61,061 nucleotides of DNA from Bacteroidales bacterium (lineage in GTDB: Bacteria > Bacteroidota > Bacteroidia > Bacteroidales > F082). The stretch is taken from positions 1-61,061 of the forward strand of contig JAFYUH010000137.1 in the NCBI GenBank assembly GCA_017549605.1, given 5' to 3'. Numbering within the stretch: the first letter of the stretch is position 1; each line of letters opens with the position of its first letter. This document shows positions 2,319 through 53,116 of the stretch, piece by piece. Both the position numbers and the translations under genes were made by a program. The notes beneath the pieces were generated by a model. It worked only from the letters and a program-made list of their open reading frames with translations, made no database searches and had not been told where the DNA came from.

Positions 2319-2380
2319 AAATTCAAAATCTCAGAATCTCAGAACTTCAGAACTTTTGAGTTTTTGAATTTTTGAGATTC
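2319..2380. repeat. TCAGAA[TC]C word hairpin between convergent thpR and acyltransferase; overlaps the acyltransferase 3' end
   Basis: 'aaattcaaaatctcagaatctcagaacttcagaacttttgagtttttgaatttttgagattc'. Confidence 0.8.
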
Positions 2381-21441: not shown

Positions 21442-21520
21442 GTAGAGACGCGTCAATGATGTAATTTATAAATAAAGTAATCTGATTTTTATAAAAAATA
21501 CATCATTGACACGTCTGTAC
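21442..21520. mobile_element. 79-bp MITE/REP-like palindromic element PE-1, copy a
   Basis: 'gtagagacgcgtcaatgatgta ...35-nt AT loop... tacatcattgacacgtctgtac'. Its reverse complement differs from 48017..48095 at only 3 of 79 positions. Confidence 0.6.
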
Positions 21521-27885: not shown

Positions 27886-29409
27886 ATGAGAAAGTTCAAT
27901 GATTTATATGTAAAGAAAAAAAGATGGAAGATCGTATTGTCGATAATCGCATTGCTGATCATAAGTCTTTCGATGTATTATACTAATAACTTGGTCAAGA
28001 AATTTGCAATGCAGGAGCAGAAGCAGATGGCGATGTGGGCGGAAGCTGTTCAGTCTCATGCAGAACTGATGAATTATACCGAAGGCTTTTTTGACGAGGT
28101 CAGTCTGCAGGAAAGCAAAAGAGTGGAACTTCTCGCCATGGCGTATCGTCGTTTTCTTGCCGCAAAAGACAATGAAAATATCGTGGTCTATCTGGATATA
28201 ATCCAAAGTAACATTAGCATTCCTGTCGTTATTACGGATAGTGAAAATAATATCACGCTTTCCATAAACCTTCCTAAGAAATTTCAGGACAAGGAAATCT
28301 TCGACCACGAAATGCAAATGGAATTTAACATTTACCCTCCGATAAAGATAGATATTTATGGCAAGGAGTCGTTTCTGTACTATAACGAGTCTCTTATCTA
28401 TACTGAATTGAGGACTGTTCTTGACGATATGTTTGCCTTGTTTATAAATGATGTGTCGGATAATGCTGTCGGTGTTCCTGTCATCATCCTTAACCAATCT
28501 CAGAATGAGATCCTCAGCTATGGCAACCTCGATTCGTCTATGATGAACGACGGCGATTATGTGGAAGAGCAACTGAAAATCATGAGTTCTGAAAATATGC
28601 CGATAGAACTTAATTATCTCAATGGTGAGAAGGCATATATCTATTACAGAAGTTCCGACTTGCTTCGTATCGTTAGTTATTTCCCTATAGTACAGATATT
28701 TGTCTTCATCTTCTTTATCATAGTGGCTTATCTGCTGTTCAGCTATGCTCGTCGTTCGGAACAGAATCAGGTGTGGGCCGGTATGGCAAAAGAGACTGCT
28801 CATCAGATCGGAACTCCTCTGACATCTCTGGTGGGCTGGATTGAACTGCTGAAACTGCAGGACACTCCTTTCATCGGCACCGTAGAGATGGAGAAAGATA
28901 TCGATAGGATGAAAGTCATAACAGAGCGTTTCTCTAAGATCGGTTCTATCCCTACCTTGGAACCTCGCGATGTAGTGGCTTCTGTCAATGAGACGATGGC
29001 TTATCTGAAACGCCGTTTCTCGAATAACAAATTCGAGTTCGAGCTGAACATACCTAACAGAGAGATTTTCGTTCCTCTCGACTCGGCTCTCTTTAGCTGG
29101 GTGCTTGAGAATCTAACAAAGAACGCCCTCGACGCAATGGAAGATCATGGAGTGCTGACGGTGGAGATGACTGAAGATGCTGATAACGTTTATATTGATG
29201 TCAGCGATACTGGTAAGGGCATGCAGCGCACTATGTTCAAGCAGGTGTTCCAGCCTGGCTATACAAGCAAGAAAAGAGGCTGGGGCCTTGGACTCTCTCT
29301 GGCGAGACGTATCATAGAAGAATATCATAAAGGAAAGATCTTCGTCAAGTCGTCAGTCGTTGGACAAGGAACAACGTTTAGAGTGTCGCTTAAAAAGACA
29401 AAAGGCTAA
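27886..29409 (+). CDS. Sensor histidine kinase (two TM segments, HisKA + HATPase_c)
   Basis: 507 aa. The H-box is 'ETAHQIGTPLTSL'; the ATPase N and G boxes are 'ENLTKNALDAM', 'DTGKGM' and 'GWGLGL'. No response regulator is adjacent. Confidence 0.85.
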   Translation: MRKFNDLYVKKKRWKIVLSIIALLIISLSMYYTNNLVKKFAMQEQKQMAMWAEAVQSHAELMNYTEGFFDEVSLQESKRVELLAMAYRRFLAAKDNENIVVYLDIIQSNISIPVVITDSENNITLSINLPKKFQDKEIFDHEMQMEFNIYPPIKIDIYGKESFLYYNESLIYTELRTVLDDMFALFINDVSDNAVGVPVIILNQSQNEILSYGNLDSSMMNDGDYVEEQLKIMSSENMPIELNYLNGEKAYIYYRSSDLLRIVSYFPIVQIFVFIFFIIVAYLLFSYARRSEQNQVWAGMAKETAHQIGTPLTSLVGWIELLKLQDTPFIGTVEMEKDIDRMKVITERFSKIGSIPTLEPRDVVASVNETMAYLKRRFSNNKFEFELNIPNREIFVPLDSALFSWVLENLTKNALDAMEDHGVLTVEMTEDADNVYIDVSDTGKGMQRTMFKQVFQPGYTSKKRGWGLGLSLARRIIEEYHKGKIFVKSSVVGQGTTFRVSLKKTKG

Positions 29410-29460: not shown

Positions 29461-29486
29461 GTAGAGACGTCACTCCTGTGGCGTCT
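29461..29486. repeat. Palindromic-element core 'gtagagacgtcactcctgtggcgtct' (intergenic copy) followed by TTAGGA[AG]T words
   Basis: The same 26-mer, as its reverse complement, occurs three times inside CDS 36215..37204. Confidence 0.8.
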
Positions 29487-29511
29487 AAAGAGTTAGGAAT
29501 TAGGAGTTGAT

Positions 29512-29561
29512 GTAGAGACGCGTCAACGTTACCTTGAAAATAAACACACGTTGACACGTCT
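29512..29561. repeat. Palindromic element PE-2, copy upstream of the helicase gene
   Basis: 'gtagagacgcgtcaacgt taccttgaaaataaacac acgttgacacgtct'. Confidence 0.7.
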
Positions 29562-29580: not shown

Positions 29581-31998
29581 ATGAAAAGTATGAAGAATGA
29601 TAAGATAGAGTTGTTGAATAGGTTTGTGCAAAACACGGACGTTCATATCTTTTTGACAGGAAAAGCTGGTACTGGAAAGACGACCTTCCTTCGTAACCTG
29701 GCGGCCAGTACATATAAGAGAATGGTCATTGTGGCTCCTACTGGCGTAGCTGCCATCAATGCGGGTGGCGTGACGATACATTCGTTTTTTCAGCTGCCTT
29801 TCGGTCCTATTGTGCCTGATGGAGAGCAGTCGTTGTCGTTGTTGTCTAATAAGATAAGCAAGACTAAACTGAAGATCATGCGCAGTCTTGACTTGCTGGT
29901 CATAGACGAGATCAGTATGGTTCGTGCCGACCTCCTCGATGCTGTCGACGCCGTATTGCGAAAAGTACGTCGTAGCAGCGCTGCTTTCGGCGGAGTGCAG
30001 CTGCTCATGATCGGCGACATACAACAGCTGGCTCCTGTGGCGCGACAAAACGAATGGGAACTGTTACAGCCTTATTATAAGTCTGTGTATTTCTTCGATA
30101 GTAAAGTGTTGAGCAGTAATCCTTATATCTGCGTGGAACTGGATCATATCTATCGTCAGAATGACGAGGATTTTATCAATATACTCAATCAGGTGAGAAA
30201 TAACAGACTGGATAAGAAAAGCGCCGACTTGCTCAACCAGCGTTATATGCCTGACTTCAACCCTGAAGATAAAGAAGGTTATATCACACTGACGACTCAT
30301 AACTCTCAGGCAGATGAGATAAATGAGCAGAAGCTTGGTGCTATAGATTCTAAGTTGCTTACTTTCAACGCTGAGATAAATGGGATATTCCCAGAGAACG
30401 CGTATCCTACAAAAGAGACTCTCGAACTGAAGGTGGGCGCACAGGTGATGTTCGTGAAGAATGACCCTTCGCCTGAGAAACAGTATTACAATGGCAAGAT
30501 TGGAAAGATAATATCATATAATTCAGACGAAGGTCTTGTAGTTCAATGTGAAGATAATGTTATCAATGTGACTCCGGTGCAATGGCAGAACTTTGAATAT
30601 ACTCTTAATGAAAAGACTAACGAGATAGAGGAGAAGGAGATAGGCAGCTTCACTCAGATTCCGCTGAGAACGGCTTGGGCTATCACTATACATAAGAGTC
30701 AGGGCCTTACATTCGACAAGGTGATTCTCAATGCAGAGATGGCTTTCACTCACGGACAGGTATATGTGGCTCTCAGCCGCTGCACTTCCCTCAAAGGCTT
30801 GGTGCTTAAGTCGAAGATACAGAATAATATCTTGTTTAACGATAACACCATAAATGCTTTCGTTGACAAGATACCTTCTCTTGAACCTGATAAAGAACGC
30901 CTTGCAAAAGAAGAATATAAGTTCTTGCACCACATGATCCTCGATTTATTCTCTTTTGGAAATCTTGAGACTCAGATGAACCGACTCGCTAAGGTGGTTC
31001 GTGAGAATGATAATATCTTTGATAAGGAGGCTGTGAATCATATCGCTGAGCGACGCCGACTTTTTAGAGAGGAGATAATAGATGTGGCGACACGCTTCGC
31101 TCGTCAGATCGACTCTATATTGCTCAATCCTAATGCCGACTTTAACTACCTTCAAGAGAGAATAAAGAAGGCCTCTGCTTATTTCTTCGACAAACTCAAT
31201 GAGTTGGAAAACATTGGCGACCATATAAACGAAACCGACAATAAAGCTGTCAACCTCTCGGTCAAGACGGTCTTGGATACGATAAGGGAGATTCTTTATG
31301 TCAAGACGGCTTGTGTCAATATGACCAAAGAAGGCTTTGACCTGGAACGCTTCCTTGAATTGAAAAACAAGAAAACTGTTGAAGCAGAGAACCTTTCTTC
31401 TTCAAAGTTGAAGTCGAAGACGATGGATAAGAAAGACCAGCCTTTGATGAATGCCTTGATGAAATGGCGTGAGGAAAAGGCAGAAGAGTTCGACAAACTG
31501 GAAAATCAGATACTTCCAAAAACAGTGTTGCTGCGTATCGTTGAGCAGAAACCTGTTTCTATAAGAGAACTTAAAGAAATCTCGAAACTTGGTATCACAC
31601 GTATAAAGAGCTTCGGATCTGACATTATTAATATGGTGCTGAAATACGAAGGCTTGGCTCAGAAGAACTTCGACGACGAGGAGTCAAAGAAAGAGATGAA
31701 TCTGTCGAGCAGCGTGCTTAAGACCTTAGAGCTTCTGGATGAAGGTGTGGAGATAGATGAGATTGCTAAGGAGAGAAATTACTCCCGTTCGACCATAGAG
31801 AATCATGTCATTGAAATTATCAAGAATGGTCTTTATACTGTGGAAGACTTTGTGGATAAAGAACATCTGGAAACGATAACAGAATATTTCGAGGAAGTCG
31901 ATGACACATCTTTATCTGCGGCACGCGACGTCCTCGGTGATGAATATTCGTATTTCGAGTTGAAATTAGGATTGATGTTGAAAAACCTTAACTCATAA
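29581..31998 (+). CDS. Pif1/RecD-like P-loop DNA helicase with C-terminal HRDC and HTH domains
   Basis: 805 aa. Walker A is 'GKAGTGKTT' and Walker B-like is 'LLVIDEISMV'; 'TIHKSQGLTF' is typical of RecD/Pif1 motif V. An HRDC-like segment lies around 'LMKWREEKAEEFDKLENQILPKTVL'. The start codon lies inside a TTAGGAG word run, and an alternative ATG 3 codons downstream is possible. Confidence 0.75.
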   Translation: MKSMKNDKIELLNRFVQNTDVHIFLTGKAGTGKTTFLRNLAASTYKRMVIVAPTGVAAINAGGVTIHSFFQLPFGPIVPDGEQSLSLLSNKISKTKLKIMRSLDLLVIDEISMVRADLLDAVDAVLRKVRRSSAAFGGVQLLMIGDIQQLAPVARQNEWELLQPYYKSVYFFDSKVLSSNPYICVELDHIYRQNDEDFINILNQVRNNRLDKKSADLLNQRYMPDFNPEDKEGYITLTTHNSQADEINEQKLGAIDSKLLTFNAEINGIFPENAYPTKETLELKVGAQVMFVKNDPSPEKQYYNGKIGKIISYNSDEGLVVQCEDNVINVTPVQWQNFEYTLNEKTNEIEEKEIGSFTQIPLRTAWAITIHKSQGLTFDKVILNAEMAFTHGQVYVALSRCTSLKGLVLKSKIQNNILFNDNTINAFVDKIPSLEPDKERLAKEEYKFLHHMILDLFSFGNLETQMNRLAKVVRENDNIFDKEAVNHIAERRRLFREEIIDVATRFARQIDSILLNPNADFNYLQERIKKASAYFFDKLNELENIGDHINETDNKAVNLSVKTVLDTIREILYVKTACVNMTKEGFDLERFLELKNKKTVEAENLSSSKLKSKTMDKKDQPLMNALMKWREEKAEEFDKLENQILPKTVLLRIVEQKPVSIRELKEISKLGITRIKSFGSDIINMVLKYEGLAQKNFDDEESKKEMNLSSSVLKTLELLDEGVEIDEIAKERNYSRSTIENHVIEIIKNGLYTVEDFVDKEHLETITEYFEEVDDTSLSAARDVLGDEYSYFELKLGLMLKNLNS

Positions 31999-32004
31999 AT
32001 TGAT

Positions 32005-32057
32005 AAGACGCATCAATGTGTGTTTATTTTTTATAAGTAACATTGACACGTCTCTAC
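32005..32057. repeat. Palindromic element PE-2, inverted copy downstream of the helicase gene
   Basis: 'aagacgcatcaatgt gtgtttattttttataagta acattgacacgtctctac'. Its reverse complement aligns with 29512..29561 at roughly 80% identity by eye, including the loop. Confidence 0.65.
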
Positions 32058-32070
32058 CTCTCGGCTAATT

Positions 32071-32109
32071 CATCAAATCCTCATACCCTCAAATCCTCAA
32101 TTCCTAATT
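32071..32109. repeat. AATCCTCA / TTCCTAA word run overlapping the M6 protease stop
   Basis: 'catcaaatcctcataccctcaaatcctcaattcctaatt'. Confidence 0.7.
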
Positions 32110-35100
32110 ACTTTATAGACTCTCGTCTCAGTCTCGGTAACGACTTGAATCAAGTATAAACCCTGACTGAAACCTCTCATGTCGATTTCCAATTTGTTGC
32201 AATTGACGTTTTCTTCAAGGAGAAGATTGCCTGTGATAGAATATATTCTGACATTTCTGATGCTGTCGTCGTAAATATTGACGTAGTCGTTTGTTGGGTT
32301 AGGATATAACTTTGGCGATTTGTCTTCCTCTGGCTCTGGATCTTCAGGTTCTGGTTCAGGCTCTGTTGGTGTCACCACGAGACAAGCCTTGTCGGAATAA
32401 AGTATGTCAGCGTTTTTGTAAACCACGCCGATATTATAACAGATGCTATCGCCTATATTCTTTTCTTCTGGATCTGTAAAAGTCGTTGATGTAATGTCAG
32501 AAGCGATGAGACTGTCTCCTCTGTAGATGTTGTAAGACAGACTGTTTACAAAGTCTTCATCTTGTTCTATATGGAGGCGTATCAGCCATGAATAGTTCAT
32601 GTTGAATTCAGATGCGCTTTTCCATGAGGTGCCTGATTTTATCATGTTGCTGTTTTCCAGTCCTACGAATTCTCCGCAAGGGATAGGAGGGTTGGATGTG
32701 CCGGCAGACTTGGCAGTTAACCATAAGTTCTGATTTGAATCGAAATTCACTTTCTTTGAGAGTTTGAAACTTACGAATTCGTTGGTGTTATTAGTCTTGA
32801 ACGCTTCGTTGTGGATGAGGTTGTCGTTGCCAGGTTTGTTGCCGTTATAGATGTTGAAGTTATATGTTGTTTCTGTAGCATCGAATATTTCTATTCCTGT
32901 GATTTTTGCACCTTCATAGATATTGAGGTTTTCTGCTGGCACCATGATGCCCCAGGTGTTGCTGCTTCCACCGATGCTTGTGACATATTTGCCATCGTCG
33001 TAATTGATAGAATGGGTGCTTTTGCTTGGGTCGACATTCCATTCCAATTTGACAAAGTTATTCTCTGATGTCGCTACGATGTCGATGATGTTTCTATTGT
33101 AATTCAAGATGGTAGCTGTTGTAGTGTCTGAAGGCAATGAGGTGCAGTCGCCTCTTTTGCTTATTATTGCATAACTGTAAGTTCCTGAATTGTTTATGGT
33201 TTTGTCAGTGTAATAGTTTGAAATGATATTATCAGCTATGACTTCGCCATTGCGTAAAACCATATAACTGTCGCTTTCAACATGAGAACTCCATTGTAAG
33301 TCGATGTATGGGCTTGATACTATAGCTATGAGGTTTTTAGGAGGTATGCATGATCCGCTGCCTTCGCAGTTTATTGTTGTTAACAAACCTTCTGTCAATG
33401 TCTCTGATTTATATATATCATTACCATTAGCGTTTATGCTGAACGAGCATTCTGTGTCATCCCATCCTGGAGTCCATTTTACGTATATCTCGGTGTTTGC
33501 AGGAACGACGACGCTCTGCTTTTTGTTGTCGCCGGAATACATTGTTAAATAGATGTCGTCCATCTCATTGTTGAAAGACAATGTTATTTCTCCGCCTTGC
33601 CATCCGTTTTCACCTGTACAATTCATGTCGAAGATATATTCGCAATAGTCTCCGGTTATGATTTTTTCTTCGTTGGAATGGAACGACTCTTTGCCATTGC
33701 TGTTGGAAGTCACATGGTATCTGTGATAACCTTCGCTGATGCTGTGATATTCGTCATTATAGTGATTTTCTGTTACATCGCTGGCGATTAAGGAACCGTC
33801 GCGGTATACGTTATAAGAATCTACATTTGCAACGGAATCCCATTTGAGTTCAACATATTTGTCTTTATTTACGTTGGCGAGCAGGTTCGTTGGGATGATT
33901 TCGCTGTTTGCTGGTAAGTATGAGAACGTCATCTGGTCGCCTTTTGCAGAGATGTTGCAGATGTTTAAATCATTATCTTTTTCGTTGATATTTAAGAAAG
34001 GATAAGGATCTGTTGTGCTGTTGAATGCTGTCTTTTTGTTGTCGGCGCTGAACGCTGCCAGGTTGATGCTGCCGTTCTTTTTGTATGTGCCGCCAGGTCT
34101 GAAGATATATAATTCGTCCAAGATGTCTTTGCCGTTATATTCTATACAGCCGTTGAATCTGGTGTCGAGGCGATAAATCAGCAATCCTCCTGTAGGCAGA
34201 CCTTTTTCGAAGATGTTGTTGTCGTTTCTGTATTCTACGAGGTAAAACTGGTCTGGGTCTGAGGTAGGTATTTTATAGCAGTTTCTGCGACCGCCTTCCC
34301 ATGAGTTGGCCTCGATGGTATATGTACCGTAACCTATTTCAGGTATGTCTTCGATCCATGTTCCGTATTTGTATTTCATATAAGTGGCGGAGTGCTGAGG
34401 CGGGTTTGAATTGTTGCACATCAAATCCCAAGGTCCGGTAGGTGAGAGGTGTTCGTAATCTTGGTTGTAGTGGTATAAGTCAGGGAATCCTAGAGAGTGA
34501 GCCATCTCGTGGCATAATGTCGACACTGTGAAATATGTTGAAGTCTCCAGTTGGAAGTTGAATCCCATGACTCTTTTGTTATGGATGTAGACATCTTCTC
34601 CATGAAGCTGCCACATGTGAGGCCAGAGCAAGTCGCTCCAGTCGCCGACATTACCTTTGACGACGAAGATGACATTGTCGATGAGTCCGTCTTCGTTACG
34701 GTCGATGTTAAGAGTGTCTGGCACTTCATCGGCTATATGTTCTATGGCTCTTTTCAGCAGCGCGAATTCGCGAGGGCCGCGGTCATTTTCCTTATAACCG
34801 TCAGGATTGGATGTTTTGTTGTAAGGTCTGTAATAATTTCTTGTGTAGATGTCTTCGTAAGCGAGAATCTTGTCACCATCAGCTTTTGGGTAGCAGTAAG
34901 ACTCCATAGAAAGTTGGTTATAAGTGGCTTTCTTGAAATAGTTGTTCATGGATATATCGTAATATCCGTTGTAGTTGAACATGGAGTCTATCTTGGTCTG
35001 TGATGTCTTGAAGTCATCGTCGCCTTTGAATTTAATGAAAACGACGAGGTTGTTATAGACGCCATGGTTAAGACCTACCAAGTCTCTGGTAGGAGTGATT

Positions 35101-35441
35101 TTCATTTTATCTCTTTTCTTAAGATATTCTTGTTGAGAGATCTTGATGTTAGGTGCGATGCCTAATGCTTTTGGGTCTGACTTTCCGGCAATATATTGGG
35201 TGGCAATTATTTCACCATCGGTGTTTGTCGTTGCATATACAAAAAAGCCGTTTTCTGCTTGGATGATGGTATAGCCGTTGATGTCGTGAAGACGGCTGTA
35301 GAATTCATCGCCGGATGCGTAACAATGTAATGTTGTGCCGTCAGGCTGTGTTAATATTCTTTCAACGTTTTTAAAAGGCGCAGCATTGATAGTTGTTAGA
35401 AGTAGTAGTAATAATGTGGTGAATAGCAGTCTTATTTTCAT
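32097..35441 (-). CDS. M6 (immune inhibitor A-like) zinc metalloprotease with FN3 units and T9SS sorting domain
   Basis: 1114 aa with a signal peptide and the zincin motif 'HEMAHSLGFPDLY'. It also has FN3-like 'SYNVYRDG' / 'SYNIYRGD' units, a Pro/Glu linker, and the C-terminal domain 'LYPNPTNDYVNIY...GLYLIQVVT'. Confidence 0.75.
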   Translation of the reverse strand: MKIRLLFTTLLLLLLTTINAAPFKNVERILTQPDGTTLHCYASGDEFYSRLHDINGYTIIQAENGFFVYATTNTDGEIIATQYIAGKSDPKALGIAPNIKISQQEYLKKRDKMKITPTRDLVGLNHGVYNNLVVFIKFKGDDDFKTSQTKIDSMFNYNGYYDISMNNYFKKATYNQLSMESYCYPKADGDKILAYEDIYTRNYYRPYNKTSNPDGYKENDRGPREFALLKRAIEHIADEVPDTLNIDRNEDGLIDNVIFVVKGNVGDWSDLLWPHMWQLHGEDVYIHNKRVMGFNFQLETSTYFTVSTLCHEMAHSLGFPDLYHYNQDYEHLSPTGPWDLMCNNSNPPQHSATYMKYKYGTWIEDIPEIGYGTYTIEANSWEGGRRNCYKIPTSDPDQFYLVEYRNDNNIFEKGLPTGGLLIYRLDTRFNGCIEYNGKDILDELYIFRPGGTYKKNGSINLAAFSADNKKTAFNSTTDPYPFLNINEKDNDLNICNISAKGDQMTFSYLPANSEIIPTNLLANVNKDKYVELKWDSVANVDSYNVYRDGSLIASDVTENHYNDEYHSISEGYHRYHVTSNSNGKESFHSNEEKIITGDYCEYIFDMNCTGENGWQGGEITLSFNNEMDDIYLTMYSGDNKKQSVVVPANTEIYVKWTPGWDDTECSFSINANGNDIYKSETLTEGLLTTINCEGSGSCIPPKNLIAIVSSPYIDLQWSSHVESDSYMVLRNGEVIADNIISNYYTDKTINNSGTYSYAIISKRGDCTSLPSDTTTATILNYNRNIIDIVATSENNFVKLEWNVDPSKSTHSINYDDGKYVTSIGGSSNTWGIMVPAENLNIYEGAKITGIEIFDATETTYNFNIYNGNKPGNDNLIHNEAFKTNNTNEFVSFKLSKKVNFDSNQNLWLTAKSAGTSNPPIPCGEFVGLENSNMIKSGTSWKSASEFNMNYSWLIRLHIEQDEDFVNSLSYNIYRGDSLIASDITSTTFTDPEEKNIGDSICYNIGVVYKNADILYSDKACLVVTPTEPEPEPEDPEPEEDKSPKLYPNPTNDYVNIYDDSIRNVRIYSITGNLLLEENVNCNKLEIDMRGFSQGLYLIQVVTETETRVYKVIRN

Positions 35442-36135: not shown

Positions 36136-36143
36136 TTTTTTTT

Positions 36144-36211
36144 AATTCATAATTCACAATTCACAATGCATAATCAGTAAAATTATGAATTATGCATTAT
36201 GAATTATGCAT
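36144..36211. repeat. Hairpin of AATTCA[TC]A words facing TATGAAT/TATGCAT heptamers x4
   Basis: 'aattcataattcacaattcacaatgcataat cagtaaa attatgaattatgcattatgaattatgcatt'. Confidence 0.8.
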
Positions 36212-36214
36212 TGT

Positions 36215-37204
36215 TTATATAAATCTTCTTTCAACTAAGTCGTTTAATTTCTTATAAGCTTCAGAGGTGCAATCCCATTGGAATTCAATCTGAAGCTCGC
36301 TCATATAAGTCTTGGCTCCCAATAAAGTGGAGAAGCTGTTCAATGATCTTATGGACTTGTTATATTTCTCCATGCTTCCGCCAAACAATTCATTGAGGAA
36401 TAAGAACTTGTCGTTGATGCCTATTGCTGTTATCAAGTCTGACACAGGCTTGCGTTGCAGACGAGCGGCGAGACTCTTGTCCTCGCTTTGTTCCAGCATG
36501 TCGCCAAGTGTTGGGATATTCTCTCTTATTATACGATAAGCCCTGATGCCAGAGTCCTCTTCTTTTTCAGAAACTTCCTTTTTGGAATCAACGGCAGTAT
36601 CGCTTAATGAATCAGTGATGGGATCTTCTTCTTCTTCTTCAGTATCAGAAACTTCATCTTCTTCAAAGTCCTCAACTCCTAACTCCTCACTCCTCACTCC
36701 TAACTCTTCAGACGCCACAGGAGTGACGTCTCTACATTCTTCAATTCCTAATTCCTCACTCCTAACTCCTAACTCCTCAGATGCCACAGGAGTGACGTCT
36801 CTACGTTCTTCAATTCCTAACTCTTCTTTGGTGAAATCCCAAACCATATCAGCTTCCTCATCGCTTTCCTCTTCATTTCCAAAGTCAATGAGTTCATTGT
36901 CATCATTATCTTCATCTTCAAACTCCTCAACTCCTAACACCTCATTCCTAACTCCTAATTCTTCAGACGCCACAGGAGTGACGTCTCTACGTTCTTCAAT
37001 TCCTAACTCCTCATTCCTAACTCCTAATTCAATGGAACAAATCGTGTCGTATAATTTTCTTGTATTTTCCATCAATAAATCGACATCAAGTTGATTCATC
37101 GGCATCTCTTTTCTAATCAGAAAATTAACCTGATTAGACATCTTGTTTAGCAATGTTTCTATTTCAAAAATTATACGGTCTTGCTGATTATTTCGTTGTT
37201 CCAT
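36215..37204 (-). CDS. Hypothetical acidic protein carrying three in-frame palindromic-element copies
   Basis: 329-aa ORF with ordinary-looking N- and C-terminal parts. The central third consists of 'EELGIEE(R/C)RDVTPVASEELGVR(N/S)E' x3, encoded by the same DNA as the intergenic element at 29461..29511. No family was recognised. Confidence 0.55.
   Translation of the reverse strand: MEQRNNQQDRIIFEIETLLNKMSNQVNFLIRKEMPMNQLDVDLLMENTRKLYDTICSIELGVRNEELGIEERRDVTPVASEELGVRNEVLGVEEFEDEDNDDNELIDFGNEEESDEEADMVWDFTKEELGIEERRDVTPVASEELGVRSEELGIEECRDVTPVASEELGVRSEELGVEDFEEDEVSDTEEEEEDPITDSLSDTAVDSKKEVSEKEEDSGIRAYRIIRENIPTLGDMLEQSEDKSLAARLQRKPVSDLITAIGINDKFLFLNELFGGSMEKYNKSIRSLNSFSTLLGAKTYMSELQIEFQWDCTSEAYKKLNDLVERRFI
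36670..37030. repeat. Three in-CDS copies of [CCTAACT]n + 'agacgccacaggagtgacgtctctac' + TTCCTAA words
   Basis: The cores lie at 36710..36735, 36779..36804 (one substitution, 'agatgcc') and 36965..36990. Confidence 0.85.
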
Positions 37205-37301: not shown

Positions 37302-38741
37302 ATGAAAAGAAGCAGAAAATTATTGGCAGTGGTATCGATATTATTGATGTCATTTGCATTGCAAGCTCAAGACAGTATTCAGAATAATGATAACGGAAAG
37401 AAGAAAGAGAAGGTTTATAACGAGAAGGGCGAGCTTATCAAAAAAGGCTGGAACTTCGGTCCTCTTCCTGTCGTTGGTTTCAATTCTGACCTCGGTTTCC
37501 AATATGGTGCCTGCGTCGACATCTTCAACTACGGCGACGGTTCTCGCTATCCAAAATTCGATTATAAAATGAACCTCGAGGCTTCAGCCTACACAAAAGG
37601 TTCTCTCAACTTACGTTTCTATGGTGATTTCTATAACCTTATGCCAAACTCTCGTCTCTTCGTTGACGCTGGTTATTTCACCGACAAACGTTTTGAATTC
37701 TACGGCTTCAACGGATTTGCTTCGCCTTATTATGATGACATTTACGTTTTAGGTCAACAGACAACAGACAACGGTCAACAGTTGATTGAAAATTTTGATC
37801 CTAATTTCAACAGCGTGTTCTACAGAATGGATCGTAAACAATTCAGATTCAACTCATGTTTGCGCAATAAATTCGGTTTCGGAGAGCATTTCTATTATGG
37901 CGTAGGTCTCAGTTATTTCAACTATAACATGGGAAGAATCAATATTCACAACGAAGAATATCTTTATGACGAACAAATTACATTGTTTGAATTATATCGC
38001 GAAAGCGGTCTAATCAGAGCTAACGAAGCTGACGGTGGTAATGTCACTCAATTGAAACTTGCTTTCATCTACGATTCCAAAAACCACGACAGCGACCCAA
38101 CCAAAGGTGCTTACTTTGAAGCAACAGTGACAGCAGCTCCTGATTTTATCGACCGTGAAGGTTACAATCACATGACTTTCAATGCTGTATGGCAACATTA
38201 TATTCCAATCGTAAAGGAAAACCTTACATTCGCTTATCGTCTCGTTACTCAAAATGTTATCGCTGGCGACATCCCTTATTACGCTATGTTTAACTCAAAT
38301 ATGTTGTTCTATAAAAAGATGTCTACCGACGCTATGGGCGGTGCAAACTCAGTACGTGGCATCAACAGAAACAGAGTCATCGGCGCTGGTTACGCTTGGC
38401 TTAACGCAGAGCTCCGCTGGAAAGTGGCTGGTTTCCAATTCATCAACCAAAACTGGAACGTCGCTCTTAACCCATTCTTCGATGCAGGTATGGTGACACA
38501 AAGTTATCGCCTTGAAGAACAAGAAAAGGCTTGGTCAGAAATAGAAAAACAATATGACATTATAGGTAACAATAACCTCATCATCGACAGCTACACTAAG
38601 GGCATTCACACTTCTGCTGGTTGCGGCTTGAAACTCATCATGAATAAGAATTTCATCATCTCTGCTGAAGCAGCAAAGGCTCTCGACGCAAGAGACGGCG
38701 ACAACTTGAAGGTTTATATAGGATTTAATTACCTCTTCTAA
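37302..38741 (+). CDS. Outer-membrane beta-barrel protein (Omp85/surface-antigen-like)
   Basis: 479 aa with a signal peptide, an alternating beta-strand pattern and a C-terminal '...YIGFNYLF' aromatic terminus. The family assignment is tentative. Confidence 0.55.
   Translation: MKRSRKLLAVVSILLMSFALQAQDSIQNNDNGKKKEKVYNEKGELIKKGWNFGPLPVVGFNSDLGFQYGACVDIFNYGDGSRYPKFDYKMNLEASAYTKGSLNLRFYGDFYNLMPNSRLFVDAGYFTDKRFEFYGFNGFASPYYDDIYVLGQQTTDNGQQLIENFDPNFNSVFYRMDRKQFRFNSCLRNKFGFGEHFYYGVGLSYFNYNMGRINIHNEEYLYDEQITLFELYRESGLIRANEADGGNVTQLKLAFIYDSKNHDSDPTKGAYFEATVTAAPDFIDREGYNHMTFNAVWQHYIPIVKENLTFAYRLVTQNVIAGDIPYYAMFNSNMLFYKKMSTDAMGGANSVRGINRNRVIGAGYAWLNAELRWKVAGFQFINQNWNVALNPFFDAGMVTQSYRLEEQEKAWSEIEKQYDIIGNNNLIIDSYTKGIHTSAGCGLKLIMNKNFIISAEAAKALDARDGDNLKVYIGFNYLF
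37753..37781 (+). repeat. CAACAGA/CAACGGT heptamer words inside the OMP CDS
   Basis: 'gtcaacagacaacagacaacggtcaacag' encodes 'GQQTTDNGQQ'. Confidence 0.85.
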
Positions 38742-42693: not shown

Positions 42694-43836
42694 ATGTTGA
42701 AAATTAATAAGATTTTAAATTACTTGATAGTACTTTCCATATTGTTTTTAATAGGTAAAAGCATTTATGATAATAATATAGAGAAGCAAAAACTGAATCA
42801 GCCTAAGTATGAATTCTCCATGTCGTTGGATGAGACGAGAACTGTTTTCCCTTCAGCCGACAGCATAGCGCAGGATGCTGTTTCTTCATATATTGTTTTT
42901 GATAAGCAAGATGTCGTTGGAAAGGTTGTCAACACTTCTCCATATAGTGACAATATTTTCGGCTATAACAGCATCACGCCTCTTACTATTTATATCGATA
43001 AAAATGATAGGATCGTCAAGGTGGAACTTTGTCCTAACAGAGAGTCGCGTGGATATATTAATAATGTAATCAAGAGCGGATTCTTGGAGTCGTGGGACGG
43101 CCTTACTGTTGAAGAGGCGTTGACACATCATGTCGATGCGGTGAGCGGCAGCACTTATTCCTCGACTGCTATTTCTCAGTCGTTGCAGGTCAGGATGCAG
43201 GAACTGACATCTCAGAAAGCGAGACTTCATTCCTGGGATTGGATGCTGTTCGTTAAGCAGATGTGTGTTCTCGCAGTTACTATATTGGCATTGATATGTT
43301 TCTTCAATCCTAAAAAGACCAAGACATTAAGACGCGTGACATTGCTGCTTTCGATCTTGATATTAGGATTCTGGAGCAACTCGCTTCTTTCCTTGGCGAT
43401 GTTTTATAATTGGATTACCAATGGCGTTTCCTTGACGATGCAGTGGGCTGTAATATTCATCGCTGCCGTCTCGATAATCCTTCCTTTGGTGACGAAGAAA
43501 TCATTCTATTGTCAATATTTATGTCCTTTCGGCGCGGTGCAGGAATTTGTCGGGATGATACCAGTGAAGAAGATAACTGTCTCAGCAAAGCTGTATAAAT
43601 TATTCTCTGTTTTAAGAAAGGTGATATTGTTAACACTTATAGTGTTGCTGGCTTTGGGTTTTGGTCTCGATCTTTCTATGACTGAACCATTCAGCGTCTT
43701 CAGTTATCAGTCGATAATATTTGAAGTGGCATTGCTTGCTGCAGTCATAGTCATAGCTTCAATATTCATCAAGAAACCTTGGTGTAATTATCTGTGTCCT
43801 ACGGGAACTGTTTTAAAATTAGGAATGAGGAATTAG
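42694..43836 (+). CDS. FMN-binding domain / ferredoxin-type (NosR/NapH-like) membrane protein
   Basis: 380 aa. It has an FMN_bind-like 'VDAVSGSTYSSTAI' segment, several TM helices and two CxxxCP motifs ('CQYLCPFG', 'CNYLCPTG'). Confidence 0.6.
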   Translation: MLKINKILNYLIVLSILFLIGKSIYDNNIEKQKLNQPKYEFSMSLDETRTVFPSADSIAQDAVSSYIVFDKQDVVGKVVNTSPYSDNIFGYNSITPLTIYIDKNDRIVKVELCPNRESRGYINNVIKSGFLESWDGLTVEEALTHHVDAVSGSTYSSTAISQSLQVRMQELTSQKARLHSWDWMLFVKQMCVLAVTILALICFFNPKKTKTLRRVTLLLSILILGFWSNSLLSLAMFYNWITNGVSLTMQWAVIFIAAVSIILPLVTKKSFYCQYLCPFGAVQEFVGMIPVKKITVSAKLYKLFSVLRKVILLTLIVLLALGFGLDLSMTEPFSVFSYQSIIFEVALLAAVIVIASIFIKKPWCNYLCPTGTVLKLGMRN

Positions 43837-43893
43837 GAATGAGAAATGAATATTCTCTCTAAAACTCCTAACTCCTAATTCCTAACTCCTAAT
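43817..43893. repeat. Hairpin of TTAGGAAT/GAGGAAT words facing CTCCTAA[CT]T words; the left arm encodes the last codons of CDS 42694..43836
   Basis: 'aattaggaatgaggaattaggaatgagaaatgaatattctctctaaaactcctaactcctaattcctaactcctaatt'. Confidence 0.8.
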
Positions 43894-43895
43894 TA

Positions 43896-46040
43896 TTACA
43901 AGTTTGCCTTGAAATATTCTGTAATCTTAGTGACGAGGTGTGCTCTGTCTGGGCCGTATACGTTATGGTCGTGGCCTGGGTATACGAAGTAATCCAATTG
44001 TTTTCCGTTGTGAATACAGTTTTCAACGAATACCAATGAATGTTGCCAGAGAACTACAGGGTCTGTTGTACAGTGGATGATCATCAATTTGCCTTCGAGT
44101 TTTTCTGTCTTGTTTTCGAGGCTTGTGAGTTCATAACCTTCTGGGTTTTCTTCTGGGCTGTCCATATAACGTTCGCCGTACATCACTTCATAATATTTCC
44201 AATCCATCACAGGGCCGCCGGCTGTTGAAACCTTAACGTCTTCTGGGTAGTTGATTTTCATGTTTGTGCTCATGAAGCCGCCGTAGCTCCAGCCGTCTGT
44301 TCCGATGCGGTCAGCGTCTACGTAAGGAAGTGACTTGAGGTAGTCGATGCCGACTTTTTGGTCGCGCATTTCAGCTTGTCCGCATTGACGGTGGATCACT
44401 TGTTCGAAAGCCTCGCCGCGGTCAGCAGAACCTCTGTTGTCCAATGTGAAGACGATGAAACCTTCTTGTGAGAGGTAATGTAAGAATATGCCAGCGCCTG
44501 CTGTCCATGAGTCGGTGATCATCTGTGCGTGAGGACCGCCGTAGACGTAGATGACGACAGGATATTTCTTGTTTTCATCGAAGTTGTAAGGTTTGATAAG
44601 ACGAGTGTAGAGAGTCTGTCCGTCTTCTGCTTTCAAAGTGCCGAGTTCGATAGTGCCGGCGTTATATTCTTTCAAAGGATCTGTAGCTTCGTGTAAACGT
44701 TTGACTTGTTTGCCGTTGGCATCCATGATGTCGATGTTTCTTGCTACATCTGTGCTTGAATATGAGTCGATGAAATATTTTCCAGAAGCGCTTGGTGTCA
44801 CACCGTGAGTTCCGTGTTCTTTGCTGATCTTGACTTTCTTGCCAGTCTTAAGATTTTGCTTGTAATAATGACGTTCCAAAGGACTTTCTTCTGTTGAAGT
44901 GTAATAGATGTTGCCGTTTTTGTCGAAACCTTCGAAAGCAGTGATGACGAATTCGCCTTTTGTGATTTGCTTAGCTTCTTTTGTTATTGTGTTGTGTTTC
45001 CAAACGTGGTAGAAACCATCACGTTGAGCGAGCCATAAGAATTCCTTGTTGTTGTTTGGCAAGAAATGAGCTGGACCGACAGGTTCAACATATTGTTCGT
45101 CTCTGTCTTCGAAGATTGTTTGGAGATATTCGCCGTTCATAGCGTTATATTCATTGAATTGAAGATAATCTTGTCCGCGGTTTAATACGCCGATGTAGAT
45201 TTTTTCGTTGTCTGGGTTCCATGTGATAGATGTGAGATATTGATCAGCAGGACCTTCTGTCTTGACGACTGTCTCTTCACCGTTTACTGTGTTGTAAATC
45301 TTCAATGTTACTTCGTGGCTTGTCATACCTGCCATTGGATATTTGATAGGTTTTGCTTCAGCAACGCGTGTAGTGATGTCTACGAGAGGGTAGTCGCTGA
45401 CCATGCTTTCGTCCATTGAATAGTAAGCGAGTTTGCTGCCGTCTGGTGACCAGAAGATACCGCCGTTGATAGCGAATTCGTTACGGTGGACTGACTGACC
45501 TGCGATTACGTTAGCAGCGTTGTCTGTTACTTGCACTTGCTTGTCGCCATCAGCATAGTATAAGTTGTTGTCGATGGTGTAAGCAACTTTCAATGATGGA
45601 GTTGTTATTGTGTGGTTTTCTGCGTTTGAAGGAACTGCTGTGACTTTCTTGATGTTCTTTGCTTTTATGTCAAGAAGGTTGAGGTCTACGCAGTTGTTTT
45701 CCTTGTTAAAGCTGTAATAATAAGCCTTGCTTGCATCGAGCCAAGTGAGGTTTGGAAGACGAGTGATGCTGTCCATTCCGGCTGCGTTTAAGTAAGAGTT
45801 GACTTGGTCTAGTGTTAACAAGACGCTTGCAGTTTTAGCGTTAACATCTTGAACCATAAGGTTGCTGTTTTCTGTGAAGACGTATTTGTCTGTGCCAGTC
45901 AACCAGTTGACGCTTTTCCCTACAGGATATATGCTGCGGTTCTGATAAGCGGCATCCATAGGGGTAAGCATTTTCTTTTCCTGAGCAAATGATGATAATG
46001 CTACAGAAATCAATGCGATTAATAACAATGTCTTTTTCAT
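43896..46040 (-). CDS. Dipeptidyl-peptidase IV (S9B prolyl oligopeptidase family)
   Basis: 714 aa with a signal peptide, a beta-propeller N-terminal half, the nucleophile elbow 'GWSYGG', and C-terminal Asp/His ('TTDPVV', 'GHDHNV'). Confidence 0.88.
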   Translation of the reverse strand: MKKTLLLIALISVALSSFAQEKKMLTPMDAAYQNRSIYPVGKSVNWLTGTDKYVFTENSNLMVQDVNAKTASVLLTLDQVNSYLNAAGMDSITRLPNLTWLDASKAYYYSFNKENNCVDLNLLDIKAKNIKKVTAVPSNAENHTITTPSLKVAYTIDNNLYYADGDKQVQVTDNAANVIAGQSVHRNEFAINGGIFWSPDGSKLAYYSMDESMVSDYPLVDITTRVAEAKPIKYPMAGMTSHEVTLKIYNTVNGEETVVKTEGPADQYLTSITWNPDNEKIYIGVLNRGQDYLQFNEYNAMNGEYLQTIFEDRDEQYVEPVGPAHFLPNNNKEFLWLAQRDGFYHVWKHNTITKEAKQITKGEFVITAFEGFDKNGNIYYTSTEESPLERHYYKQNLKTGKKVKISKEHGTHGVTPSASGKYFIDSYSSTDVARNIDIMDANGKQVKRLHEATDPLKEYNAGTIELGTLKAEDGQTLYTRLIKPYNFDENKKYPVVIYVYGGPHAQMITDSWTAGAGIFLHYLSQEGFIVFTLDNRGSADRGEAFEQVIHRQCGQAEMRDQKVGIDYLKSLPYVDADRIGTDGWSYGGFMSTNMKINYPEDVKVSTAGGPVMDWKYYEVMYGERYMDSPEENPEGYELTSLENKTEKLEGKLMIIHCTTDPVVLWQHSLVFVENCIHNGKQLDYFVYPGHDHNVYGPDRAHLVTKITEYFKANL

Positions 46041-48005: not shown

Positions 48006-48016
48006 ACTCTGAACAA

Positions 48017-48095
48017 GTACAGACGTGTCAATGATGTATTTTTTATCAAAATCAGATTACTTTATTTATAAACTACATCATTGACGTGTCTCTAC
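48017..48095. mobile_element. 79-bp MITE/REP-like palindromic element PE-1, copy b (opposite orientation)
   Basis: 'gtacagacgtgtcaatgatgta ... tacatcattgacgtgtctctac'. It matches the reverse complement of 21442..21520 at 76 of 79 positions. Confidence 0.6.
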
Positions 48096-48131
48096 AATCC
48101 GAACTCTGACTCAGACACTGACCGCTGATAG
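48096..48131. repeat. CTGAC-type word run abutting PE-1b
   Basis: 'aatccgaactctgactcagacactgaccgctgatag'. Confidence 0.55.
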
Positions 48132-50802: not shown

Positions 50803-53004
50803 ATGAAAAAAACTTTCTTATTAGTAGCCCTCGTTATTTTCTCATTAGTGGGCAAAGTACACGCTGACGAAGGTATGTGGCTTCCTATGTTCGTTGAGCG
50901 TTTGAATTATGTTGACATGGAAAAGATGGGTCTTCAACTTACTCCTGAAGAACTCTATAGCATCAACAACAGCAGCTTGAAAGACGCTATCGTTGGCTTG
51001 TCAAACGGCGACAGACCACGTGGTTTCTTCTGCACAGGCGAAATCGTTTCTCAAAACAGCCTTATGTTCACTAACCACCACTGCGGTTACGGTTCAATCC
51101 AAAAACTCAGCACTGTTGAACATGACTATTTAACAGACGGTTTCTGGGCAAAAGACTTCAGCGAAGAACTTCCAGCTGAAGGTATCTCAGCTTCTTTCTT
51201 GGTACGTATGGAAGACGTTACAGAACAAGTTTTCAGTGTTTTGAACGACACAATGACATGGGCAGAACGTAATGCTGCTATCGCTGCTAAATCTGCAGAA
51301 CTCGAAGCTGCTGCTTCAGAAGATGGCAAATACAACCCAATCATCAAAGGTTTCTTCGAAGGTAACGAATACTATATGTTCGTATATCAAGTATATACAG
51401 ACGTTCGTCTCGTAGGTACTCCTCCTTCATCAATCGGTAAGTTCGGTGGTGACACTGACAACTGGATGTGGCCTCGTCACACTGGCGACTTCTCAATCTT
51501 CCGCGTTTACGCTGACGCTGAAGGCAATCCGGCTGCTTACTCACCAGAAAACAAACCTCTCACTCCAAAACATCATCTTCCAGTTAGCTTAGACGGCGTT
51601 CAACAAGATGACTTCACAATGATCTGGGGTTTCCCTGGTACAACAAATCGTTACCTTACATCATACGGCGTTGACTATAACGTAGAAACATTCTACCCAA
51701 TCATCCACGATATCTTCAAACTCCAAACAGACATCATGGACGAATTCATGCAAAAAGACGCTTCTGTCAACATTATGTACGCTGACGACAAAGCTGGTCT
51801 TGCTAACACATGGAAAAACTTCGAAGGTCAAATGTTGATGCTTCGTAAGAATAAAGTCGCTGAAAGAAAAGCTGAACTCGAAGCTCAATTCACAGAATGG
51901 GTTAACGCTGATCCAGCTCGCGTTGAAGAATACGGCAACGTATTGAACACATTAGCTGAAAACTACAACACTCTTTCAGAGTTAAGCGCATCAGTTTATT
52001 TCCCTAACTTCGTTTCACAAACAGGCGCTATCGCTATCTCAGCAGAATTCGCTCAATATGTAGCTGCTGCTCAAAGCAAAGATAAAGAAGCTGTCGCTGC
52101 TGCAGAAGAAGCTCTTAAAGCTATCGACGTTGATGCATTCTTCGCTGAAACATACAAACCATTAGAAGACAAAATGTTGGTTGAAATGTTGAAATTATAT
52201 TACAACACATTCAACGCTGAAGTAAATCCTGACTTCTACAACTTGGTTGAAAAACAATATAAAGGTGATGTTGTTGCTTTAGCTAACGCTATCTTGGAAA
52301 AATCTATCTTCGCAACAGCAGAATCAATCAATGCTTTCATCGCAAAACCTAATGCTAAGAAAGTTGAAAAAGATGCAGCTTACGTTGTATTCAACGCAAT
52401 GGTAAATCACATGGTAAGCGGTCTCGCTCCATTCCGCGCAGCAAACCAAGTTATTGCTGAAAACAACCACATGTTCGTTAAAGGCTTACGCGAATTCTAT
52501 GCTGAAACACAACCAGAAAAATCTTTATATCCAGACGCTAACTCATCATTACGTATGACTTACGGTTCTGTTAAAGATTACCAACCAGCTGACGCTGTTT
52601 CTTACGACTACATCTGTACAGCTAACGGTATCCTTGAAAAATATGTTCCTGGAGACTATGAATTCGACGTTCCACAAAGACTCCTCGACCTCATCGAAGC
52701 TAAAGACTTCGGTCAATATGCTAACGAAGACGGTGAATTGATCGTTTGCTTCCTTTCAACAAACGACATCACTGGCGGTAACTCAGGTAGTCCAATCATG
52801 AACAGCAGAGGCGAACTCATCGGTCTTGCATTCGACGGCAACTGGGAAGCTATGAGCGGCGACATCAACTTCGAACCAAGATTACAACGCACAATCAACG
52901 TTGACGCTCGTTACGTATTGTTCGTAATCGACAAGTTCGCTGGCGCAACAAACCTCATCGAAGAGTTGACAATCGTTAAAAGCGAACCAACAGTTGAAGA
53001 ATAA
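50803..53004 (+). CDS. S46 family dipeptidyl-peptidase (DPP7/DPP11-like)
   Basis: 733 aa. The mature N-terminus 'DEGMWLP' follows the signal peptide. It also has 'TNHHCGY' (catalytic His), 'GGNSGSP' (catalytic Ser) and a helical insert. Confidence 0.88.
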   Translation: MKKTFLLVALVIFSLVGKVHADEGMWLPMFVERLNYVDMEKMGLQLTPEELYSINNSSLKDAIVGLSNGDRPRGFFCTGEIVSQNSLMFTNHHCGYGSIQKLSTVEHDYLTDGFWAKDFSEELPAEGISASFLVRMEDVTEQVFSVLNDTMTWAERNAAIAAKSAELEAAASEDGKYNPIIKGFFEGNEYYMFVYQVYTDVRLVGTPPSSIGKFGGDTDNWMWPRHTGDFSIFRVYADAEGNPAAYSPENKPLTPKHHLPVSLDGVQQDDFTMIWGFPGTTNRYLTSYGVDYNVETFYPIIHDIFKLQTDIMDEFMQKDASVNIMYADDKAGLANTWKNFEGQMLMLRKNKVAERKAELEAQFTEWVNADPARVEEYGNVLNTLAENYNTLSELSASVYFPNFVSQTGAIAISAEFAQYVAAAQSKDKEAVAAAEEALKAIDVDAFFAETYKPLEDKMLVEMLKLYYNTFNAEVNPDFYNLVEKQYKGDVVALANAILEKSIFATAESINAFIAKPNAKKVEKDAAYVVFNAMVNHMVSGLAPFRAANQVIAENNHMFVKGLREFYAETQPEKSLYPDANSSLRMTYGSVKDYQPADAVSYDYICTANGILEKYVPGDYEFDVPQRLLDLIEAKDFGQYANEDGELIVCFLSTNDITGGNSGSPIMNSRGELIGLAFDGNWEAMSGDINFEPRLQRTINVDARYVLFVIDKFAGATNLIEELTIVKSEPTVEE

Positions 53005-53041
53005 TTGAAAATTGAAAACTGAAAGTTGAAAATTGAAAGTT
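53005..53041. repeat. TTGAAA[AG] heptamer run x5 after the S46 peptidase stop
   Basis: 'ttgaaaattgaaaactgaaagttgaaaattgaaagtt'. Confidence 0.8.
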
Positions 53042-53068
53042 AAGGACGCAGAATGCGTCCTTTTTTTT
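53042..53068 (+). terminator. Canonical rho-independent terminator after the S46 peptidase gene
   Basis: 'aaggacgca gaa tgcgtcctt' followed by a T-run. Confidence 0.8.
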
Positions 53069-53116
53069 ATTTCTCGCAGAGACGCAAAGGAACGCAAAGT
53101 TTATACAAACACCAAA

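Follow-up and report, generated by a model that had tools for sequence, protein, structure and literature searches.

How does a short palindromic repeat come to lie three times, and in one and the same reading frame, inside a protein-coding gene? The question is raised by a contig of 61,061 nt from a Bacteroidales bacterium (GenBank assembly GCA_017549605.1, contig JAFYUH010000137.1), the whole of which we call the window. The core of the repeat, GTAGAGACGTCACTCCTGTGGCGTCT (26 nt), occurs four times there: once in the spacer between the open reading frames (ORFs) 27886..29409 and 29581..31998, and three times in the minus-strand ORF 36215..37204, the host gene in what follows. The intergenic copy and two of the genic copies are exact; the remaining one carries a single mismatch, G to A. 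A pattern search bears out this count, made in the original prediction for this DNA, and 100 shuffles yielded not one match by chance. The claim that the three genic copies share a frame stands as well: within the host gene they read EELGIEERRDVTPVASEELGVRNE, EELGIEERRDVTPVASEELGVRSE and EELGIEECRDVTPVASEELGVRSE, each in the form ...EE(R/C)RDVTPVASEELGVR..., and none introduces a stop. The core is a repetitive extragenic palindromic (REP) element with a GTAG tag, of a family dispersed in ruminant-gut Bacteroidales. We think it probable that such a REP, accompanied by a REP-associated tyrosine transposase (RAYT), landed in repeat arrays of the protein's linker, and that its copy number then changed by way of those arrays.

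The element is compact. On folding, the hairpin seen earlier in the core resolves into GTAG and nine stem base pairs, one of them a conserved G·T (G·U) wobble, closed by a loop of 4 nt. Its folding energy is −7.7 kcal/mol for DNA (z −3.7) and −13.8 kcal/mol for RNA, and the GTAG strand folds better than its complement. Rfam at gathering thresholds has no match in the window. A scan of one genome per species with a 23-nt core query found at least 105 copies in at least 100 loci of at least 20 metagenome-assembled genomes (MAGs), all but one labelled Bacteroidales and mostly from ruminant gut. These loci (L001 and so on) are stretches chosen for carrying the core; counts for the family are lower bounds that refer to the listed stretches, the MAGs are fragmented, and genes were placed by crude ORF calls. 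JAZKYV alone has at least 21 copies, and JAFOBJ at least 21 loci, both being fragmented MAGs. In 94 of 103 unique copies GTA stands directly before the core's G, a T occupies position −4 in 57% of copies, and nothing is conserved outside GTAG...CGTCT. A covariance model returns 166 matches, variants included. Among 33 distinct variants 97.3% of the cells are paired, both sides have changed in three pairs, and 32 variants retain the U·G, counts that lean towards structure, the alignment having been fitted to that model.

When the coding ratio was checked, as had been proposed, the copies proved dispersed and mostly intergenic, 24 of the 105 listed lying deep inside long ORFs. That coding fraction, about 23%, is rough: stop-to-stop ORFs defined it, and the sample is biased to core-carrying loci. 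The intergenic copies favor the 3' side of genes. By spacer, 41 are in unidirectional, 21 in convergent and two in divergent settings; relative to the upstream gene, 43 are sense and 19 antisense, and 19 fall within 13 nt of its stop codon. Most are solitary, with 95 singletons against 23 direct neighbor pairs and seven inverted pairs. Individual spacers can be seen with and without the element. Two related loci, L057 (6600-6760) and L058, carry a REP 12 nt past the stop codon of the gene that in the window is 50803..53004; the orthologous spacer of the window (53004-53070) has a GAAAATT array and a GC hairpin followed by a T-run, and no REP. This is a presence/absence polymorphism of an intergenic REP. 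In one MAG, CASFUX, the identical core recurs at many loci (L013, L017, L028, L032, L033, L042, L052, L096 and L097), in flanking DNA that looks, by eye, much more GC-rich, a hint that the REP/RAYT system spread horizontally or that the sequence is under very strong constraint.

The host gene is not alone in having been entered. In-frame REPs occur in at least 14 further genes, and 12 of the 15 host families have Pfam support (Table 1). The element has four open frames, and these are used very unequally: RDVTPVAS is read in 13 of the 15 families, the antisense DATGVTSL in two (PanC and fucosidase), and VETSLLWRL and RRHRSDVS in none. A binomial estimate puts the chance of at least 13 in 15 falling in one of the four at about 1e-6. 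A clean case is the PanC of L007: set beside seven relatives at 52-75% identity, it is longer by exactly nine residues (DATGVTSLQ). What was inserted is therefore a unit of 27 nt, the 26-nt REP and the base at −4, and since this amounts to nine codons, any reading frame survives its arrival. No arrays surround the REP in PanC, NadE, GH20 and other hosts, and the array-free insertion in PanC means that arrays are not required in general.

That the host gene itself is genuine seems clear. Homologues of its product number 1386, every one from a Bacteroidales-type MAG or metagenome, and in their alignment some 58 residues at the N-terminus and 115 at the C-terminus are close to invariant, on either side of a hypervariable acidic middle. 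Searched by itself, the C-terminal domain matches 5901 representative clusters, and in nearly all of the 150 matches listed it stands at the C-terminus, mostly in proteins of ~180-670 aa. Its AlphaFold2 (AF2) model is confident and all-helical, with a predicted local distance difference test (pLDDT) score of 82.7, and Foldseek finds it no fold match in the PDB (best E 5). The AF2 model of the full protein, from a shallow alignment, is poor (pLDDT 37.6), with the linker as coil at ~30. Gene order—asparaginase, outer-membrane-protein (OMP)-like, host gene, rsmI—is conserved in other assemblies. The homologues, the clusters and confident model of the C-terminal domain, and the conserved gene order tell against the idea that the minus-strand ORF is non-functional, a pseudogene or unexpressed, or that the S-rich ORF 36546..37094 on the opposite strand, which the original prediction had flagged, is the real gene. 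In favor of that idea, Pfam and NCBIfam hold no family for the host protein or the antisense ORF, nor Pfam one for the C-terminal domain, and the antisense frame is open for 182 aa. However, only the minus-strand frame carries the nearly invariant terminal domains, so the antisense ORF is not the gene; it spans just the repeat region and matches no family, and we rejected it. Either version of this alternative strikes us as extremely improbable.

The linker into which the REPs have settled was repetitive already. TTAGGAG/TGAGGAG heptamers give 24 matches where 0.94 are expected. The TTAGGAG words first described as flanks of the core are real, but they belong to a separate, older microsatellite of the linker, present in homologues that have no REP; because the ELGVRSE repeats that these arrays encode are found in all homologues, the arrays must be older than the REPs. 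Two of the genic copies, at 36710 and 36779, share a 69-nt tandem unit composed of one array and one REP, and are therefore not independent events.

Sister alleles preserve the history of this unit. Counted by the strict motif RDVTPVAS in 120 listed homologues of the 1386, blocks number 0, 1, 2, 3, 4 and 5 in 79, 15, 13, 9, 3 and 1 proteins, so that orthologues lacking them, the check that had been called for, are plentiful. Every number from zero to five occurs among homologues whose C-terminal domains are ~96-100% identical; at 88-90% identity none has a block, P0118 being the sole exception. Filled and empty sites can be compared at the DNA level. In allele P0023 the arrays run uninterrupted at both sites; P0009 is without exactly one 69-nt array-plus-REP unit at the first site, between 22-nt direct repeats, GAATTAGGAGTTAGGAATGAGG; and P0005 is missing one unit of the tandem pair. 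Three independent insertions were considered and rejected, because both the tandem unit and the deletion in P0009 speak for duplication. Most likely, the three copies represent one or two arrivals followed by local duplication. In the linker of the more distant orthologue P0118 (L105 930-1150) there is a REP variant with the loop CCCT (SDVTPVASEEYS repeats), present in six copies of 36 nt that run head to tail. Most of these have decayed, several stems are broken, and one matches the strict motif, which indicates a second, independent REP colonisation of the same linker. Decayed blocks are met in other homologues too, as RDVTRVAS, RDVTLVAS and RDITPVAS.

Might the blocks instead be an ancient protein repeat, retained because RDVTPVAS serves, for example, in binding or as a modification site, with no DNA having been inserted at all? 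In favor of this, they are always in frame, the peptide is polar, and the linker is internally duplicated. But at more than 100 loci, mostly between genes, and in proteins that are unrelated, the same 26 nt occur without a difference at any codon position; at 88-90% identity almost every homologue is free of the block, and close alleles range from none to five; and PanC and fucosidase read the element in an antisense frame. Contradicted already by dispersal, by block variation and by the use of the antisense frame, this explanation was rejected, and we find it scarcely credible.

A candidate agent of dispersal is encoded in a related genome, other than that of the window. L049 and L065 come from one MAG, JAZKYV. 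In the first lies an orthologue of the host gene that has three REPs, and the DNA of this locus matches the window at 91.5% identity over 6.5 kb; the second contains an ORF, P0241, for a RAYT-like protein. This protein scores 23.6 bits against Pfam Y1_Tnp, narrowly above the cut-off of 23, and its best and sole meaningful NCBIfam match is REP_Tyr_transpos (E 4e-11). A homologue at 75% identity has been named RayT by the Joint Genome Institute (JGI). When phmmer was run with the single protein against the PDB only noise emerged; it took a profile of 29 homologues to reach E. coli TnpArep (4ER8), its best match in the PDB, with the HUH histidines invariant and Y163 nearly so. Judged by residues read off the published table, its motifs NHIH, WQ and YIKNN appear to resemble those of RAYT subclass 2.4 (PMC6006769). 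REPs surround the gene: exact ones at 6045 and 6089, just upstream, an inverted variant at 5392-5417, at the stop codon, and a degenerate one at 5281. The arrangement is that of a REPtron. A second family of palindromes, with long arms and a GTAGAGACG head, is represented in the window (Table 1), and in L024 (2600-3530) it lies on both sides of a RAYT paralogue 54% identical to that of L065, which suggests one RAYT per REP subfamily.

Events at this locus may, then, have gone as follows. One REP, or at most two, would have landed in the TTAGGAG arrays of the disordered acidic linker, mobilised by the RAYT if the analogy with E. coli TnpA_REP is a fair one. With its adjoining base the REP would have contributed 27 nt, and so nine codons, keeping the frame, and in this orientation and frame it would encode a polar, harmless peptide, RDVTPVAS. 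Thereafter 69-nt units would have been duplicated and deleted as the flanking arrays recombined unequally or slipped, giving three here and zero to five in sister alleles. The protein would be translated through these inserts, which would be neutral.

Several things sit uneasily with this account. Neither a target-site duplication nor a defined signature of insertion came to light, and in the host gene the boundaries of insertion are blurred by the arrays. The copies are mostly singletons and head-to-tail tandems, unlike the doublets called REPINs. The RAYT-like protein only just passes the Pfam cut-off, and its 42.9 and 40.6 bits against the NCBIfam equivalog NF047646 fall short of the cut-off of 80. 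A tblastn search of the 61-kb window found no RAYT gene, so that a RAYT in this genome remains putative. Translation through the inserts is argued from conservation of frame among predicted proteins, a set biased towards intact ORFs, and the choice of loci for the core, together with crude ORF calls, makes for a rough coding fraction. Finally, in the ATP synthase gamma subunit (AtpG) a 45-nt segment bearing the REP stands in place of the 42-nt CAACAGA heptamer array of 92%-identical relatives, between flanks that are ~96% identical. It replaces an array of similar length, so simple insertion is not the whole story.

Side by side, relatives of this AtpG (L070 880-1080(-) against L104 590-800; P0121-P0240) have GRDVTPVASE, GQQTTDNRQQ or GQQSMVNGQQ in their first loop and QQTTDNRQQ, RHRDTETPRHQ or QKPTANSQQ in a second, in segments with sharp boundaries and of nearly equal length. 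Arrays of the CAACAGA type are common in the spacers of this clade, and in the window they are in frame in two more genes, as GQQTTDNGQQ and RQQTTDNGQ. Where the OMP-like gene has GQQTTDNGQQ, relatives show NYATDNGRNT or NDATDNGRNT, of the same length, and ACAGAyAACGGT is common to both; this array looks like a native loop that was regularised or converted, and not like an insertion.

Such cases lend some weight to a different route for the same element, namely arrival by gene conversion between the linker arrays and an intergenic TTAGGAG array that carries a REP. The stretch 29460-29507 matches the genic copies over 48 nt at 91-94%, running 21 nt beyond the hairpin into RAAGAG and TTAGGAR words; the match ends exactly at the GTAG side, and is extended on the array side only. 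REPs adjoin TTAGGAR arrays in other genomes as well (L004, L016, L031, L059 and L076), and the loops of AtpG and of ORF 37302-38741 have been replaced or regularised by array sequence with their length unchanged. Against this, PanC, NadE, GH20 and other hosts have no arrays around their REPs. Given the clean 27-nt insertion in PanC, a route independent of arrays must exist, and beyond GTAG...CGTCT the 103 unique copies have no flanking sequence in common. We regard conversion as possible but doubtful. A bolder proposal is that REPs and 7-8-nt arrays are interchangeable in-frame cassettes, written into the same loops and linkers by a directed process, either RAYT-linked or guided by arrays through conversion. 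It is prompted by the two AtpG loops, the OMP loop and the AAGACACC arrays in proteins of the type IX secretion system (T9SS), all of which hold repeat-derived segments. We consider it rather unlikely; were it true, repeats from between genes would diversify protein loops systematically, and would not be just an occasional neutral insertion.

Whether the units are useful is another matter. They might be kept for tuning the length of the linker, in the manner of contingency loci, or the three hairpins might modulate translation or decay of the mRNA. The linker does vary widely, giving proteins of 226-350 aa among the 120 listed homologues, two REP subfamilies have colonised it independently, and the conserved U·G wobble and the bias towards the sense strand would suit a role at the RNA level. 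But alleles with no REP are common, accounting for 79 of those 120; decayed copies exist; and hosts so varied and unrelated speak for tolerance of the element and against a function, as was argued before (PMC3733652). On balance a useful role appears quite unlikely, and the RAYT-accompanied landing followed by array-mediated change in number remains our preferred account.

Table 1. Features of the window and of related loci (positions are those of the window unless a locus, L, is named; TRF, Tandem Repeats Finder)
Feature	Position	Strand	Evidence
Host gene, 329 aa, for a conserved Bacteroidota protein; N-terminal domain helical, acidic linker disordered, C-terminal domain all-helical	36215..37204	-	
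Hypervariable acidic linker (~residues 59-214) holding heptamer arrays and REPs	36563..37030	-	alignments, AF2
REP copy 1 (gene order), exact core, read (R)RDVTPVAS	36965..36990	-	45.7 bits
REP copy 2, one mismatch GCG->GCA (G-C pair to G-T/G-U), first unit of 69-nt tandem	36779..36804	-	42.3 bits
REP copy 3, exact core, second unit of 69-nt tandem	36710..36735	-	pattern search, TRF
Tandem duplication of 69 nt (23 codons), heptamer array plus REP; 2.2 copies, 91% matches	36672..36823	-	TRF, repeat search
TTAGGAG/TGAGGAG heptamer array, reads ELGVRNEELG	36998..37030	-	TRF, period 7
Other three period-7 arrays	36921-36958, 36746-36777, 36669-36706		TRF
Intergenic REP, exact core, 52 nt past stop of ORF 27886..29409, sense to that ORF	29461..29486	+	pattern search
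AAAGAG and TTAGGAA/TTAGGAG words 3' of intergenic REP	29487..29507	+	repeat search
Second palindromic family, ~50-90 nt, long arms, GTAGAGACG head (GTAGAGACGCGTCAAyG...CrTTGACACGTCT)	29512..29561	+	
Further copies of the long-arm family	21442-21520(+), 32006-32057(-), 48015-48102		
CAACAGA array in OMP-like ORF 37302-38741(+)	37755-37779		
CAACAGA array in ORF 8043-14156(-)	8253-8277		
AAGACACC/AAGTCACC octamer arrays, T9SS C-terminal signal regions of three paralogous large proteins	14342-14377, 21636-21671, 23739-23774		
Octamer array in ORF 2331-3560, reads TPRRRDTET	2799-2834		
RAYT-like Y1 transposase ORF, 182 aa (P0241)	L065 5417-5962	-	Pfam, NCBIfam, profile search
REP in PanC	L007/L067		Pfam
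REP in alpha-L-fucosidase	L014/L092		Pfam
REP in GH20	L021/43/82/85		Pfam
REP in GreA-like protein	L025/35		Pfam
REP in ManC	L038		Pfam
REP in peptidase U32	L053		Pfam
REP in ATP synthase gamma (AtpG)	L070		Pfam
REP in ABC ATPase	L089		Pfam
REP in NadE	L095		Pfam
REP in RecD-like helicase	L008		Pfam
REP in second GH20	L068		Pfam
REP in bPH_5 protein	L060		Pfam

Elsewhere in the window there are further repeats. The octamer arrays in the T9SS C-terminal domains read VTETPSHQE and VTESPSHQE, and the same octamers build hairpins in the spacers at 118-170 and 1639-1742. A hairpin at 43819-43892, between the convergent genes 42694-43836 and 43896-46040, is formed by a heptamer array and its own inverted copy (TTAGGAA… / …TTCCTAA), and another array hairpin (AATTCATAAT… / …ATTATGAATT) lies at 36139-36210, between the host gene and rsmI; both may be terminator-like structures. 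The region 3635-27715 is taken up by very large minus-strand paralogues of 955-2037 aa, with internal repeats of 243-300 nt and shared C-terminal regions (repeat families D1-D11 and D17-D20). A further large gene, 32097-35441 (1114 aa), stands outside this region, and its orthologue matches Por_Secre_tail. The large paralogues are probably surface proteins secreted by the T9SS.

These observations extend REP/RAYT biology, studied mainly in Proteobacteria so far, to abundant uncultured Bacteroidales of the gut. REPs can rewrite coding sequence there, and nine-codon inserts in ATP synthase gamma, PanC and NadE mark sites in these proteins that are permissive. A linker with zero to five copies among close alleles could serve for strain typing, and calls for caution in short-read assembly and annotation. 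There is material that can be tested directly: a defined substrate of 26 nt, a candidate enzyme of 182 aa, and a tryptic peptide, DVTPVASEELGVR, that would be diagnostic in metaproteomes. The published model of REPs does not explain why these elements are linked to heptamer arrays, or why cassettes in protein loops appear to be swapped.

How much of this was known? In the library of papers searched, neither RDVTPVAS nor TAGAGACGTCAC occurs, and GTAGAGACG turned up only in unrelated papers, apparently in primers. Intragenic GTAG and CGTC REPs were catalogued in 2013 as neutral inserts in loops and linkers, the Rickettsia elements RPE-4 and RPE-6, equated there with REPs of the CGTC type, among them, in a survey that listed Bacteroidetes with CGTC REPs only, and no GTAG (PMC3733652). 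The RAYTs of Bacteroidetes were classified in 2018, when subclass 2.4 was reported, and E. coli TnpA_REP cleaves and rejoins REPs in vitro (reviewed in PMC6006769).

With the GTAG REPs and REPtrons of other bacteria (Nunvar 2010; Di Nocera et al. 2013, PMC3733652; Quentin et al. 2018, PMC6006769) the present family shares its 26-nt stem-loop, the terminal GTAG in more than 90% of copies, the G·T in the stem, the location just 3' of genes in unidirectional and convergent spacers, the occasional copy in the loops and linkers of ORFs, and, at L065, a single HUH/Y1 gene flanked by REPs. It differs in that its members are mostly singletons or head-to-tail and sit habitually in 7-8-nt microsatellite arrays; in a genic share of about a fifth, which looks high in a sample that is biased; and in a RAYT-like protein that scores below the NCBIfam equivalog cut-off. 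Close precedents are the single, paired and clustered GTAG REPs in known genes of Opitutus terrae, Thauera and other bacteria, whose clusters encode 20-82 aa (PMC3733652). Hosts in that survey were enriched for DNA replication and repair, whereas here most are enzymes of metabolism or glycoside hydrolases, with ATP synthase gamma and one disordered linker besides, and what the present locus adds is a polymorphism of zero to five copies at one site and a 69-nt unit mediated by arrays. REPINs, too, are REP-derived units that are linked to RAYTs and have spread in the genome (Bertels and Rainey 2011). We rejected that label for our element: REPINs are inverted doublets, and inverted pairs are the least common arrangement here. 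The TnpA proteins of the IS200/IS605 insertion sequences (IS) have the same HUH/Y1 chemistry on hairpins of single-stranded DNA, and the strand asymmetry of the REP, with its G·T on one strand, fits recognition of a single strand; but there is no IS structure, the element is non-coding, and the transposase-like gene appears to be fixed, not mobile.

There remain the Rickettsia palindromic elements (RPEs), reportedly described by Ogata et al. in 2000 and 2002, to whose behavior the original prediction had likened the in-frame copies. RPE-1 and its relatives are longer, roughly 100-150 bp against 26-27 nt, and we know of no transposase dedicated to RPEs. The Rickettsia elements are alphaproteobacterial, whereas the element described here is GTAG-tagged and has a RAYT-like gene. 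Membership of an RPE sequence family we rejected; it is by the 26-nt length, the GTAG tag and the Bacteroidales host, and not by comparison of sequences, that we would set the two apart. As to behavior, the likeness holds: both are palindromic repeats that lie in frame in many unrelated functional genes and give rise to short extra peptides, here in 15 host families, with a clean insertion in PanC. The phenomenon is not new, for it had been catalogued already, and the element is a GTAG REP. It works like RPEs, and is of a kind already published, in a new group of bacteria.

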